Source: a virus
Length of the DNA: 64,000 nt
IMG/VR virus record: IMGVR_UViG_3300042896_000283
Coordinates: 49,095 to 113,094 of that record
Reading direction: 5' to 3' (one strand)
Below are positions 1,272 to 54,784 of the stretch, in pieces (the first letter of the stretch is position 1; each line of letters begins with the position of its first letter). The position numbers and the translations under genes are program-made. The notes beneath the pieces were generated by a model. That model ran no database searches and was not told the DNA's origin. It saw only the letters and a program-made list of their open reading frames with translations.

Positions 1272-1454
1272 TTAAGGAGCTACTGTAGTAGTAGTGGTAG
1301 TTGTATAATTACAACATTCTTTAGCATCTATTTCTTTCCAATTTCCAACCTTCGGTTTAAATGCTTGTACAATTAAACTACTTGATACTATACGCCCTGA
1401 ACCATCAAAACGTACATAAGCTTTAAGCTTATTATTATTATTACTTCTAGCCAT
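1272..1454 (-). CDS. small T7-tailed protein (paralogue A)
   Basis: 60 aa, LKAYVRFDGSGRIV...ECCNY-T7-VAP; tandem paralogue of 1457..1642. Confidence 0.85.
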   Translation of the reverse strand: MARSNNNNKLKAYVRFDGSGRIVSSSLIVQAFKPKVGNWKEIDAKECCNYTTTTTTTVAP

Positions 1455-1456
1455 GA

Positions 1457-1642
1457 TTATACAGGTAATGTAGTAGTGGTTGTAGTAGTAGGAACGTAGT
1501 TACAGCATTCATATGCTAAAATCTCACGCCATTTACCAACTTTTGGCTTATTTTTTCTAAGGATTAAGCTTCCTGCAACTATTCGGCCAGATCCATCGAA
1601 TCTGACAAAAGCCTTTAAAGGTCTTGAATCAATGCTTCCCAT
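1457..1642 (-). CDS. small T7-tailed protein (paralogue B)
   Basis: 61 aa, LKAFVRFDGSGRIV...ECCNYVP-T7-LPV. Confidence 0.85.
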   Translation of the reverse strand: MGSIDSRPLKAFVRFDGSGRIVAGSLILRKNKPKVGKWREILAYECCNYVPTTTTTTTLPV

Positions 1643-1659
1643 TTGTTTTAAATTTAGGG

Positions 1660-2676
1660 TTAATAGTTTAGGTTATATTTTTGTTTTAGTTCATTAAGTT
1701 TAGTTGCATAGAACCAGGTGCAATATTTTTTTGATCTTTCATCATTAAGAATAACATTTAAGTTAGCATCTTTTGTTGGATCAGTTCCCATATGATATTT
1801 ACCTTTGTAAAAGGCTGGGTAACCATTTCCTGTCTCAGAAACTATTCCTGCATTATGAAAGATTGTATGTGTATCTAATTTGATAATAGGATCTGTAGCC
1901 CAAGCAAATGCTAATTCAGGCACCACTCTTGTTTCTTGTTCTCTAAACCATAGGTTCCATAAAACTGCCCACATATCTGCACACCAACTTTGATATCCAG
2001 AATTCTCATCTTTAAAGAACTCTCTATTTATTTTTTGTAAATATGTTCTTATAAGGATACAATCATTCATCACCTTACTCCAGAAGTTTGCATCTACATT
2101 CTTTAATAAATATTGTGCTCCTCCTGAATGATCATTATTAGCTTCAGCTATTTCTCTACTTATTCCTATAATACTAGCAAGTTCTCCAAGGATATCTCTA
2201 CTCTTGTATTCTTCTAGCTTCTCTGGAATCACTTGATGTATCTTACTATCAAAATACTTAGCATTGATATAGCTATTTGTATCTGATAAGTAGTTAATAT
2301 CATCCTCTAAGAATTTATCTAGATTGAAATCCTTCATAAATAGAATATCACTATCACAATAGAAGATAGCTTTTTCATTCAGTTCTGGATGTTTTTTAAA
2401 ATGTTTCCAAAGAACATATGGTCTTAGTACAGGAATATAGATTCCTAATAACTGATTTAGATTATCTTCATCTGCATAGTAATGAAACTCTGCTTCTGGA
2501 TATAGATCTTCTATCTGTTTCCACTTATCTCTATTCTCTCTTCCTTTAGGAGTGAATATAACAGATATTGCTTTATCAGAATGTCCTATTTCCTTTAAGC
2601 TCTCAAGCCAAAGATTTACTTGCCATGTATAGTAAATATCACTAGGACACGCTTGTAAAAATTTTAAATCTTTCAT
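1660..2676 (-). CDS. GT-A fold glycosyltransferase resembling GT95 (HPAT)/GT96 (SGT1) peptide O-glycosyltransferases
   Basis: Ordered motifs YYTWQ, YIPVLRPY, IFYCDSDILF (DxD), GGAQYLL, SWCADMWA, IFHNAG parallel the HPAT/SGT1 motifs YxxWQ, N(R/K)P, DxD/EPD, GWxxEMY, IxHY. Confidence 0.7.
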   Translation of the reverse strand: MKDLKFLQACPSDIYYTWQVNLWLESLKEIGHSDKAISVIFTPKGRENRDKWKQIEDLYPEAEFHYYADEDNLNQLLGIYIPVLRPYVLWKHFKKHPELNEKAIFYCDSDILFMKDFNLDKFLEDDINYLSDTNSYINAKYFDSKIHQVIPEKLEEYKSRDILGELASIIGISREIAEANNDHSGGAQYLLKNVDANFWSKVMNDCILIRTYLQKINREFFKDENSGYQSWCADMWAVLWNLWFREQETRVVPELAFAWATDPIIKLDTHTIFHNAGIVSETGNGYPAFYKGKYHMGTDPTKDANLNVILNDERSKKYCTWFYATKLNELKQKYNLNY

Positions 2677-2704
2677 AATGTAGTTGGTTTTTTGTTTTTA
2701 TTCT

Positions 2705-2842
2705 TTATATAGGTGCAACTGTTGTAGTTGTAGTTGTCGTACATTTAGCTGTTACACATATTAATTTTTCTAATTCTTTAGATATTGTCCATAGGAGATT
2801 ACTTTGTGTACTCCAACCTATTTGTCTTGATGGTATAGCCAT
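2705..2842 (-). CDS. 45-aa fibre-anchor plus T7 mini-protein (not in ORF track)
   Basis: Translated by hand: MAIPSRQIGWSTQSNLLWTISKELEKLICVTAKCTTTTTTTVAPI*; N-terminus homologous to 2855..4330. Confidence 0.85.
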   Translation of the reverse strand: MAIPSRQIGWSTQSNLLWTISKELEKLICVTAKCTTTTTTTVAPI

Positions 2843-2854
2843 TTTTTATTTTTA

Positions 2855-52822: not shown

Positions 52823-52832
52823 AATATGAATT

Positions 52833-52928
52833 TTATTTATTTACTTTAGATGCGCAGTGTGCACATAATCCATTGGTCAATTGACAACCACACCCCACTT
52901 TAGCTCCGCAATTTAAACATTGTGCCAT
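52833..52928 (-). CDS. 31-aa Cys-rich peptide (not in ORF track)
   Basis: MAQCLNCGAKVGCGCQLTNGLCAHCASKVNK*; fills the gap between two genes. Confidence 0.7.
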   Translation of the reverse strand: MAQCLNCGAKVGCGCQLTNGLCAHCASKVNK

Positions 52929-52930
52929 AA

Positions 52931-53494
52931 TTAATAAAAGTTTAATTGATAGTTATTACCTGAACAACCACAGTTAGATTTAAGAAAACCGTTTAACATA
53001 TTATCTGCCTGAGCATATAATGTATTTGATTCATATTCTGCACAGTTATTAGCTGCAGCAATTGCTCCTTGAATAAAGAAGTTAATTGTATTTAATTGTA
53101 CGCTAGATTGCGTTTTAAGGGCTCTATCACACTCCATCATATTTAATTGGAGGAAAGCACTGTCAAACTTTTCTTGAAGTCTCTCAACACGTAATATAGT
53201 CTTTTCTACATAATTTGCATATGCAGGAGCTACAGAATATTTTAATCTATATACTCCATCAGGAAGTGGTTGATTACAACCAGCATCTGTTATCCCTAAA
53301 TTAGACGATGTGAATACATTTAATTGGTTAGGAACGAATGGTAATATTGTTGTTCCGAATCCTGGAATATCAATCTCAATAGATGGTGCTGAGACCACTG
53401 GAGGATTGGTAGGATATACAGAAGCATCTGCAACACCAAGAGTATTAACATCATAAGTAGGAACTACTAGTATATCTAATTGTAAGTTTGCCAT
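52931..53494 (-). CDS. putative tail hub/fibre-docking structural protein
   Basis: LPDGVY..KY motif, structural context, C-terminal CGC. Confidence 0.5.
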   Translation of the reverse strand: MANLQLDILVVPTYDVNTLGVADASVYPTNPPVVSAPSIEIDIPGFGTTILPFVPNQLNVFTSSNLGITDAGCNQPLPDGVYRLKYSVAPAYANYVEKTILRVERLQEKFDSAFLQLNMMECDRALKTQSSVQLNTINFFIQGAIAAANNCAEYESNTLYAQADNMLNGFLKSNCGCSGNNYQLNFY

Positions 53495-53510
53495 GTTGTT
53501 TTATAATAAA

Positions 53511-53553
53511 TATGCCAGAGGAATATGAGTGATATCCTCTTTCCCCTGGCATA
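53511..53553 (-). terminator. hairpin after the auxiliary capsid gene
   Basis: TATGCCAG / CTGGCATA arms with an inner AG-rich/CT-rich stem; T-rich tail on the minus strand. Confidence 0.5.
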
Positions 53554-53584
53554 GGTTATTTAATAATATTACTTATTCTTCTTC

Positions 53585-54784
53585 TTAAGGGATAAGAGTA
53601 GAAGTTGTAGTAGTAGTAGATGCAGGAGCACTAGATGTAGTAGTTGTAGTTGTAATACAAGCATTGTTATCTAATACAGTTCCTAAAGCAGCTTCTAAAA
53701 CAGTTTCAATTGCAGCAGCAATACCACTCGTTAAAGAGTTTGGAGCAGCAATAATTACAGTGCTATCTTCTTGAATGTAATCACCCCATTGATATGCAGA
53801 TTTATCAAGTTCATTGAATTTGATATAATAAGTATCATAAGTAACTCCACTAGATACCCAAGTCTCAAAGTTCTCGTTGTATCCATTCATTCTGTAAAGG
53901 TGTTTCAAGTAACCAGCTTGGTAGCTATAGAAATTTTTCTCTAATTGAGCAATTTCTGCAGATGTACCAGTAGCATAAGAAGCACGTTGAGTGATGATTG
54001 GTTGAGCAACAAAGTTACAAGCATCTGCAACAATAAAGTCAGCAGTAGTAGCTGGACCAGCATATACAAATGTTCTGAAAGACATTCTGTCATATTCAAA
54101 AGGGAACGCAGCAACATCACATGGTTGACCATATTTAGTTAATGGTTTTCCTGTAATACGTAAAATAGTTCCACCTACATTTTCAAATGTATAGAATGTA
54201 GAGAATGAAATGTTATCAGGGTTGTTTCCTGGAGCTTTCAAATTCAATTGATAAATTAATTCATCAATGATAGTTGATGTAGGTACATCATCACATGGGT
54301 TATCACCACAGTTACAACAAGGAGCTTGAATAGTTACTGATCTAGTGAAACCATTGAAATACAATGTATCAATGTAAGAAGAGTGTGCACGCAATGTTAA
54401 TGTGATAACTTCTCCACATTGTACAGTGAAATCAGTTACATCAGTAATTTGGTTAGCAGCAGTTGGACATCCTGATACTTTGTACCATTCTGTTACATTA
54501 GAACCTTGTGGTCTAATTACTTGAGCATTTCCTGTAAGAGAAACTGAACCACCTGCAATTCTATCAGATCTTTTAGATCCTTGCAAATAAGTGTTTGTTC
54601 TACCTTGAGCTACATAAAAGTAAGGAGTTGCTAAAATAGTAGTAGCATTAACTGCTAGATAAGCACTGTTAAAAATACCTACTTGACCAGCTGTCAAGTT
54701 TTGTGTTGAAATCGAACCAGCGCTAGGGAGTGTTGTTTGCCCCACTGGAACCACGAAGAGCGTGGTTAATGAAAAATCAGCCAT
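53585..54784 (-). CDS. structural protein (probable auxiliary capsid protein) with Thr/Ser C-terminal tail
   Basis: Third gene after the MCP as in the crAss-like gene order; ends ACI-T6-SSAPAS-T5-STLIP. Confidence 0.6.
   Translation of the reverse strand: MADFSLTTLFVVPVGQTTLPSAGSISTQNLTAGQVGIFNSAYLAVNATTILATPYFYVAQGRTNTYLQGSKRSDRIAGGSVSLTGNAQVIRPQGSNVTEWYKVSGCPTAANQITDVTDFTVQCGEVITLTLRAHSSYIDTLYFNGFTRSVTIQAPCCNCGDNPCDDVPTSTIIDELIYQLNLKAPGNNPDNISFSTFYTFENVGGTILRITGKPLTKYGQPCDVAAFPFEYDRMSFRTFVYAGPATTADFIVADACNFVAQPIITQRASYATGTSAEIAQLEKNFYSYQAGYLKHLYRMNGYNENFETWVSSGVTYDTYYIKFNELDKSAYQWGDYIQEDSTVIIAAPNSLTSGIAAAIETVLEAALGTVLDNNACITTTTTTSSAPASTTTTTSTLIP

Follow-up and report, generated by a model that had tools for sequence, protein, structure and literature searches.

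Does the glycosyltransferase encoded at 1660..2676 of a 64-kb stretch of viral DNA decorate the runs of threonine carried by ten proteins of the same stretch? The stretch (64,000 nucleotides, positions 49,095 to 113,094 of IMG/VR record IMGVR_UViG_3300042896_000283; hereafter the window) makes up the right-hand 64 kb of a record that is complete at 113,094 bp and carries direct terminal repeats. An initial annotation of this DNA had proposed that seven consecutive threonines (Thr7) serve as a portable tag that the enzyme of the phage itself glycosylates. All of the comparative tests that we ran supported this proposal at the sequence level, and we consider it probable that the enzyme 1660..2676 glycosylates portable Thr tags on the late proteins of the phage.

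Six-frame translation of the window recovered every run that had been listed, giving sixteen poly-Thr runs on ten late proteins, all on the minus strand, and the earlier counts were exact (12 Thr7, 1 Thr8, 2 Thr6, 1 Thr5; Table 1). Across the 48 minus-strand open reading frames (ORFs; 20,521 aa, Thr 7.2%) and the 45-aa ORF 2705..2842, the Thr-run lengths (length:count) were 3:15, 4:0, 5:1, 6:2, 7:12 and 8:1. No other residue gave a comparable peak in the same ORF set, and arithmetic from composition (Thr 7.2% of 20,521 residues) put the chance expectation at ~0.0002 Thr7 runs. Of the 113-kb genome, only the minus strand of the window held (ACN)7 matches, 14 in total; neither strand of the remaining 49 kb contained one. 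Nine tags close their proteins, 0-4 residues from the stop codon, and the remaining tags lie between domains, seven runs being deep within long genes. The tags are commonly preceded by Cys or Cys-Cys and usually followed by hydrophobic-(A/P)-P. Both this placement and the lack of a Thr tag on the major capsid protein 56908..58470, the portal 59909..62494 and the terminase agree with what the initial annotation had described. Because three pairs of tagged regions are paralogous, about ten separate contexts remain.

Three Thr7-tagged mini-genes had been said to flank the transferase gene, and 1272..1454, 1457..1642 and 2705..2842 do all carry Thr7. The model of mini-protein 1272..1454 consists of a small three-stranded beta domain and a disordered tail, at moderate confidence (pLDDT 73.7). 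Its family comprises 64 distinct orthologues, which adjoin the transferase in relatives, and C47 and C48 were invariant in the 37 orthologues compared. The small beta domain, the Cys-Cys pair and the tag are the only conserved features of the three tiny proteins. Among the larger carriers, the C-terminal domain of 38309..44329 is homologous to residues 280-509 of 49393..51282, a domain of ~200 aa that is followed by Thr8 or Thr7. The N-terminal 75-aa modules of 48692..49381 and 49393..51282 are 41% identical, and both end in a junction of the CC-Thr7 type. The tail pattern of 53585..54784 is kept in its orthologues. Cys-Cys codons were seen directly before the tag at 1305-1310, 1496-1501, 49124-49129 and 50932-50937 (the mini-proteins and the ..VCC-Thr7 and ..VCCVA-Thr7 fibre-like modules); to us this pair looks like an inter-chain disulfide knot that might staple an oligomer.

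The unit of the tag became apparent in relatives. On the coding strand of 80 loci around the transferase, Thr-run lengths were 3:234, 4:71, 5:39, 6:21, 7:232, 8:37, 9:6 and 10:1, and on the opposite strand of these loci no Thr run exceeded 4. Members of the mini-gene family have a 45-aa conserved domain closing in an invariant Cys-Cys. Their first run was Thr7 in 62/91 instances, encoded by 48 different nucleotide strings, and the departures were mostly Thr8 or Thr5-Ser-Thr2. Their tails held 1-4 blocks with a spacer of 3 residues in 64/72 cases (mostly VAP, AAP or IAP), and internal blocks such as TTTSTTT still amounted to seven hydroxy residues. Whole 30-nt units differed in copy number between relatives. 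The tag unit is a 7+3 decapeptide of seven hydroxy residues (Thr, occasionally Ser) and x-A/P-P, present in 1-4 copies; most proteins of the window phage have a single copy, and relatives have 1-4 in tandem. Codon strings drift and Thr-to-Ser changes leave seven hydroxy residues: what is conserved is the block length of the protein, whereas copy number varies. The portal-side loci were looser, Thr5 followed by Ser being common there as well (5:130, 7:139). The initial annotation was right that the runs are no slipped microsatellite, the mix of ACA, ACT, ACC (and ACG) codons differing from run to run, and that their length looks selected in the protein. Its claim of a fixed length stands as a strong preference for seven, not as a rule, since copy number varies and one complete relative (G097, below) has the enzyme without Thr7.

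Heptad blocks with a Pro-ending spacer are not restricted to the phage's own clade. Staphylococcus phage vB_SpsS-DH5, an unannotated record, has the arrays Thr7-AKP-Thr7-KA-Thr7 (5577-5654) and Thr7-QP-Thr6SSThr7-QP-Thr7 (9795-9893), both upstream of its transferase homologue and no more than 4.5 kb from it. An enzyme-bearing Enterococcus phage has Thr7-VKP-...-VKP-Thr7, and in Clostridium phage phiCTP1 Thr5-VAP and Thr5-NAP blocks adjoin the enzyme. The recurrence of the block design in distant enzyme-bearing phages points to a property of the enzyme.

The transferase 1660..2676 had no match in Pfam (E<=0.1) or NCBIfam, a sequence search against solved structures gave nothing meaningful, and its one PHROG match was to phrog_4417, of unknown function. 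With its AlphaFold model (pLDDT 96.8) as query, Foldseek returned 278 matches at E<=0.001; GT-A enzymes headed the list, glycogenin first (E 2e-7). VIA-align ranked the Skp1 alpha-galactosyltransferase 6mw8 (Z 14.1) and glycogenin (Z 14.1; 237 aligned residues, root-mean-square deviation (rmsd) 4.0) level, followed by LgtC (Z 13.8; 234 aligned, rmsd 3.6), the UGGT catalytic domain (13.8) and GlyE (12.6), then by the PBCV-1 capsid glycosyltransferase A64R (Z 11.0) and Mimivirus R699 (Z 10.5); xyloside xylosyltransferase was also among the closest solved structures. Residues Y80, D108, D110, Y136, Q229, F257, H274 and K291 were invariant among 62 aligned homologues (30-49% identity), and the DxD motif (FYCDSDILF) directly follows model strand E103-107, as in GT-A enzymes. 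The protein is predicted to be a GT-A-fold transferase of the metal-dependent type. As modelled, it resembles CAZy family GT8 in structure over the catalytic domain but not by family profile: Glyco_transf_8 was absent from the transferase (Pfam, E<=0.1) and from the 25 families listed for the 62 homologues.

The initial annotation had called this enzyme GT95/GT96-like. What stands of this is that the nearest named protein-atlas clusters carry the HPAT domain PF23452 on 10-58% of their members. However, hmmscan gave no PF23452 match for the transferase, 2/62 homologues reached only E 0.012, below threshold, and the structural neighbours are protein- or glycan-directed enzymes of the GT8 type instead. 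The link to HPAT/GT95 is only a remote lead. A full-library search found 771 representative clusters of the transferase family, which occurs in 77/50,697 isolate phage records, and a single-protein scan with the enzyme of Enterococcus phage VPE25 returned 2 loci. Longer homologues are fused to GT2, GT6, GlcNAc-transferase, O-fucosyltransferase or methyltransferase domains. The window protein starts MKDLKFLQACPSD, the first beta strand of its globular model is at residue 4, and neither the sequence nor the model showed a hydrophobic N-terminal helix (no dedicated membrane-helix predictor was run). A soluble, anchor-less transferase would therefore fit action on phage proteins in the cytoplasm. 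A predicted complex of the transferase with mini-protein 1272..1454 and Mn scored 0.01, with no controls run, and we count it neither for nor against the pairing.

The co-occurrence of tagged genes and enzyme in relatives, which the initial annotation had put forward as a check, came out in favour of its proposal. Within the phage's own clade the enzyme was found in 29/30 relatives, including 21/21 of those at least 90% complete, and (ACN)7 matches in 28/30, with up to 26 per genome and nearly all on the enzyme strand. The reversed control pattern was nearly absent from the genomes of the same relatives. Thr7 or longer runs were present in 20/21 near-complete relatives. Further afield, the enzyme and Thr6 runs were both absent from four crAss-like or large phage genomes (Lbo-JY46, cr6_1, ProJPt-Bp1 and PhiCrAssBcn17), and the enzyme-bearing Chryseobacterium phage MA9V-3 had 15 (ACN)6 matches, two of which fall in the pair of genes immediately upstream of its transferase.

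The head-tail module houses the enzyme gene in Enterococcus phages: in phiFL1A it directly follows the gene for the major tail protein, and in VPE25 it has capsid genes on one side and connector genes on the other. Tail-tube and capsid proteins of such phages end in poly-Thr. Among 27 IMG/VR tail-tube orthologues of the Enterococcus siphovirus type, tails of the Thr6-xP-Thr7 type were present in 12/12 with the enzyme downstream and in 0/15 without it (Fisher p ~6e-8 by our own arithmetic, which ignores relatedness). Tagged and untagged states both occurred within a group of tail-tube orthologues at 65-68% identity, and the enzyme-tag pair has therefore been gained or lost more than once. In a sample of arbitrary IMG/VR contigs above 15 kb, the enzyme family was on 5/45 contigs with an (ACN)7 match versus 0/40 with the reversed pattern (one-sided p ~0.04). 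Enzyme and tagged late proteins share one genome and co-vary across phages.

Other sugar enzymes are encoded nearby. The initial annotation had suggested that an island at 8189..11167 extends or sulfates the glycan. The island does encode a sulfotransferase, an adenylyl-sulfate (APS) kinase and a GT9-like transferase (Table 1); its role could only be an optional one. The sulfotransferase and the GT9-like gene occurred in exactly the same 8/30 relatives (6/21 of the complete ones), and because the GT-A enzyme is in 29/30, the island (8625..11167) is an accessory cassette, an optional add-on; we rejected it as a core part of the tag system. The Thr7-tagged gene 11257..11580 travels with the island, as orthologues ending in KD-Thr7 were found only in island-bearing relatives (L021, L025, L034 and L055).

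Within the island, the sulfotransferase 10346..11167 had a weak NoeE-like match as well, and the APS kinase 9023..9466, a short protein, matched TIGR00455 at 2.4e-19 and 69.7 bits, under the equivalog cut-off of 138.7. That a phage should make its own donor, 3'-phosphoadenylyl sulfate (PAPS), is unusual. The true start of 9466..10410 is probably 25 codons downstream, at ~10335. This protein fell short of the GT9 profile (PF01075, 13.4 bits, under the cut-off of 22), and a sequence search against solved structures returned nothing meaningful for it. PF01075 is carried by 46% of the members of its atlas neighbours, and its homologues have 289 aa; many are named ADP-heptose:LPS heptosyltransferase by JGI, and one, 64% identical, carries PF01075. 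The adenylyl/cytidylyl-transferase class to which 8625..9026 is similar activates nucleotide sugars or similar compounds. A GT2 gene (225 aa, Pfam 47 bits) lies at genome positions 46872-47549 on the plus strand (L454:3873-4550), ~1.5 kb before the window start, as the last gene of a plus-strand block and ~3 kb from the GT-A gene. It was present in 21/30 relatives (16/21 complete ones) in two divergent forms. Only the GT-A enzyme was universal in complete relatives (21/21), and one relative, G094, had 14 Thr7 runs and neither GT2 nor the island.

Several observations weigh against an action of the enzyme on the tags. The complete relative G097 (IMGVR_UViG_3300032286_000363; loci L405-L410) has the enzyme and no Thr7; at the orthologous positions its proteins carry Thr6 tails and a tract of 31 mixed Ser/Thr residues. 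Lactobacillus phage SAC12B (MK504446.1) has the enzyme and no Thr6 run in its entire 136 kb, and its transferase homologue lies between holin and exonuclease genes. Contig L179 (IMGVR_UViG_3300034152_000419, GC 51%) encodes three neighbouring proteins with C-terminal Thr12, Thr17 and Thr13, and the enzyme family was not found on this 77-kb contig, which is 74% complete; other enzymes may also act on poly-Thr tails. The association of enzyme and tags is not absolute, SAC12B being one exception to it. The relatives are non-independent samples and their counts overstate the number of evolutionary events, no enzyme-less relative was found inside the phage's own clade, and the literature yielded no biochemical or mass-spectrometric evidence for the enzyme family. 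As a separate observation, G099, the sister of G097, had just 3 matches, and both genomes lack GT2.

If the Thr7 runs were unmodified hydrophilic spacers or tails of set length, the transferase would act elsewhere, whether on phage DNA, on a small molecule or on a glycan of the host envelope. A linker is plausible for the roughly half of the runs that sit between domains; SAC12B has its enzyme gene near lysis and replication genes, outside the particle module; and G097 retains the enzyme with few tags. We nevertheless regard this explanation as unlikely, as the nine tags at or near the stop codon have nothing to link, and it leaves unexplained both the tail-tube split and the split of 0 vs 15 among crAss-like and large phages, as well as the siting of the enzyme inside particle gene blocks beside tagged genes in several lineages. 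Somewhat less likely again is that the tags are modified, but that 1660..2676 extends a glycan started by GT2, the GT9-like protein or a host enzyme, or that the main modification is not a sugar (sulfate or phosphate). The closest structures do include extenders of protein-bound glycans (Skp1 alpha-GalT, xyloside xylosyltransferase, GlyE), GT2 is a near neighbour found in most relatives, and sulfotransferase and APS kinase are encoded here. Against this, it is 1660..2676 that is universal in complete relatives, with GT2 at 16/21 and the island at 6/21; genomes with many Thr7 runs may have neither, as G094 does; and Enterococcus tail-tube tags track the 1660..2676-type gene downstream, although other glycosyltransferases were not looked for there.

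The runs could also be a feature of the nucleic acid (a slipped ACN microsatellite, a translation-initiation enhancer or a recombination linker) free of selection at the protein level, and several C-terminal runs do come 8-45 nt before the next start codon, and the number of whole 30-nt units differs between relatives. The runs deep within long genes, the 48 nucleotide strings behind 62 Thr7 runs of constant length, the preservation of seven hydroxy residues through Thr-to-Ser changes and the near absence of the reversed pattern from the same genomes make this very improbable, and we rejected a slipped microsatellite or translation signal. We give the least credence to the idea that the Cys-plus-Thr mini-peptides are precursors of ribosomally synthesized and post-translationally modified peptides (RiPPs; of lanthipeptide, thiazole/oxazole or glycocin type) and not particle parts. 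Their size (45-61 aa), their conserved N-terminal part, the Cys-Cys and Thr-rich C-terminal part and the adjacent modifying enzyme would fit such a role. But a scan of the neighbours turned up no dehydratase, cyclase, cyclodehydratase, protease or exporter, the same tag is on particle-module proteins of 229 to 2006 aa, and the N-terminal part of the mini-protein is modelled as a small beta domain, unlike a leader; this role was rejected too.

We infer from the tags, the fold and DxD motif of the enzyme and the co-occurrence of both in distant phages that the enzyme acts on the tags, that it uses a sugar to do so and that the resulting coat benefits the particle. In the mechanism that we propose for glycosylation of the Thr tags, a soluble, cytoplasmic GT-A enzyme of the retaining type would draw on a nucleotide sugar as donor and coordinate a divalent metal through D108-x-D110. 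It would recognise the disordered 7+3 tags, whether C-terminal or between domains, and load their Thr hydroxyls with sugar. The glycosylated tags would become stiff, hydrated, protease-resistant brushes resembling mucin, placed on fibre-like tail proteins, on the large virion protein and on the three tiny proteins whose genes adjoin that of the enzyme. Lengthening or sulfation of the glycan may follow in some lineages, by GT2 and, in a quarter of relatives, by the GT9-like transferase and the sulfotransferase with its APS kinase. The phage particles are probably sugar-coated. A broader reading joins phrog_4417 and the heptad/x-A/P-P decapeptide into one general portable tag system across crAss-like podoviruses and Enterococcus, Staphylococcus and Clostridium siphoviruses, with length set by the acceptor site of the enzyme and the glycan extended and sulfated via phage PAPS in some lineages; taken as a whole, we hold this to be possible but rather doubtful.

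Among the closest known systems is that of mycobacteriophages. According to the summary in PMC12363180, the glycosyltransferases of Che8, Corndog and Myrna modify capsid and tail proteins in the cell, giving a sugar-coated particle. A phage-encoded transferase and phage structural proteins as acceptors are shared with the window phage. The mycobacteriophage system has experimental proof, in phages of Actinobacteria (transferases Che8 gp110 and Corndog gp38), whereas the window phage is known from metagenomic sequence alone, and a heptad tag with an x-A/P-P cap over ten proteins belongs to the window phage and not to the mycobacteriophage system as that summary describes it. The study of mycobacteriophage virion glycosylation is reportedly that of Freeman et al. 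2023, Cell Host Microbe 31:1216.

The GT8-type enzymes glycogenin, Skp1 alpha-galactosyltransferase (6mw8), LgtC and GlyE share their fold and DxD metal site with the window transferase (Z 12.6-14.1 across 210-240 residues), and several are cytoplasmic enzymes whose substrates are proteins or protein-bound glycans, GlyE coming from serine-rich-repeat protein glycosylation. The window transferase differs from them in its identity of 9-13%, its lack of a Glyco_transf_8 match and its ~80 additional residues. The plant and algal enzymes HPAT (GT95) and SGT1/SERGT1 (GT96) start glycans on clustered hydroxy amino acids by prolines, as in extensin Ser-Hyp4. The plant enzymes are membrane-anchored Golgi proteins, whereas the window transferase has no visible anchor, is globular from residue 4 and lacks an HPAT profile match. 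Mucin-type tandem repeats share dense Thr/Ser blocks, a Pro ~three residues past the last acceptor and variable tandem copies, and for the polypeptide GalNAc-transferases (GT27) a Pro at +3 favours glycosylation. Unlike these enzymes, the window transferase has no GT27 or lectin domain (Pfam), and unlike mucin repeats the window tag is a strict 7+3 decapeptide, often single at the C-terminus, that would be made in the bacterial cytoplasm. The giant-virus enzymes PBCV-1 A64R and Mimivirus R699, both structural matches, are virus GT-A enzymes acting on their own structural proteins, but belong to eukaryotic viruses and have no poly-Thr tag; PBCV-1 glycans are N-linked to its capsid protein. Searches of the literature on poly-threonine or threonine-rich glycosylated phage proteins and on glycosylation in crAss-like phages found no description of an enzyme-tag system. 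New features are the strict unit of heptad and cap, its presence on ten proteins, the mini-genes that carry it and the optional sulfation and heptosyl-type island.

The phage is an aquatic crAss-like podovirus. GC content is 31%, and all major window genes are on the minus strand. Several window genes beyond those in Table 1 match 'virion structural' PHROGs, and ORFs of 1574 aa and 4343 aa, of a type typical of crAss-like phages, are present. Portal identity to known crAss-like phages is 23-29%; the best isolate by portal 59909..62494 is the cyanobacterial Leptolyngbya phage Lbo-JY46 (28.8% identity, E 2e-71), above the gut crAss-like phages. Aquatic metagenomes are rich in near kin, with proteins 66-95% identical. 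Upstream of the transferase block lie two probable fibre genes without a Thr tag, for a 491-aa protein with a weak beta-roll (ice-binding-like) match (2855-4330) and a collagen-repeat protein (Pfam Collagen, 5e-16; 4345-5433). Homing-endonuclease-type genes were seen within the late block (GIY-YIG, SegE-like; 6287-6811) and in the plus-strand block outside the window (HNH/NUMOD4; L454:523-1056). Genes for an endonuclease VII-like protein and for a DNA repair exonuclease of the SbcD type (45293-45829; 47023-48255) lie amid virion structural genes, an unusual site for DNA metabolism.

Table 1. Tagged proteins, sugar enzymes, particle genes and poly-Thr runs of the window.
Feature	Position	Strand	Details
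Mini-protein, 60 aa	1272..1454	minus	48-aa conserved domain ending ECC, then NY-Thr7-VAP
Paralogous mini-protein, 61 aa	1457..1642	minus	ECCNYVP-Thr7-LPV; 66% identical to 1272..1454
Glycosyltransferase, 338 aa	1660..2676	minus	predicted GT-A fold, GT8-like; DxD = D108/D110; proposed enzyme for Thr tags
Mini-gene, 45 aa	2705..2842	minus	directly upstream of transferase; ...AKC-Thr7-VAPI
Small adenylyl/cytidylyl-transferase-like protein	8625..9026	minus	Pfam CTP_transf_like 1.1e-6; TIGR00125 31.3 bits (cut-off 27.7)
APS kinase (PAPS donor synthesis), 147 aa	9023..9466	minus	PF01583 1e-18, 68.2 bits (cut-off 21.1)
Probable GT9-like (heptosyltransferase-type) transferase	9466..10410	minus	NCBIfam heptosyltransferase III, E 6e-4
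Sulfotransferase, accessory island	10346..11167	minus	PF13469 Sulfotransfer_3, 1.2e-14, 55.5 bits (cut-off 27); PF00685 40 bits (cut-off 22)
107-aa protein	11257..11580	minus	end KD-Thr7-VA; directly upstream of sulfotransferase island
Virion protein, 2006 aa	38309..44329	minus	Thr7 at residues 1587-1593 and 1752-1758 (between domains); Thr8 at 1998-2005 (C-terminus)
83-aa protein	48425..48676	minus	end Thr7-LI
Fibre-like protein, 229 aa	48692..49381	minus	N-terminal module, VCC-Thr7, C-terminal domain
Cys-rich fibre-like protein, 629 aa	49393..51282	minus	Thr7 at 119-125; Thr6-SSSS-Thr7 at 191-207; Thr7 at 513-519
Tail-fibre protein	51295..52440		PHROG match
120-aa protein	52460..52822	minus	end NP-Thr7-A
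Structural-module protein, 399 aa	53585..54784	minus	end CI-Thr6-SSAPAS-Thr5-STLIP
Major head (capsid) protein	56908..58470		PHROG match
Portal	59909..62494		PHROG match
Terminase	62496..63764		PHROG match
Thr7 runs, first six of twelve	1284-1304, 1469-1489, 2720-2740, 11266-11286, 39056-39076, 39551-39571	minus	
Thr7 runs, other six of twelve	48434-48454, 49103-49123, 49726-49746, 50662-50682, 50908-50928, 52466-52486	minus	
Thr8 run	38315-38338	minus	
Thr6 runs	50695-50712 and 53636-53653	minus	
Thr5 run	53603-53617	minus	

To our knowledge, the sugar-coating of phage particles by their own enzymes has been shown only for mycobacteriophages. The enzyme described here is carried by phages of gut, dairy and clinical Gram-positive bacteria and has hundreds of metagenomic relatives, and if our reading is true, phage self-glycosylation would extend far beyond mycobacteriophages. 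A short encoded tag and one soluble enzyme would then offer a simple means of site-directed O-glycosylation in bacteria. Glycosylated tags would bear on particle stability, on stickiness to mucus or particles, on receptor binding by tail fibres and on antibody recognition of therapeutic phages and, where sulfation is added, would give a bacterial virus a truly mucin-like sulfated coat.

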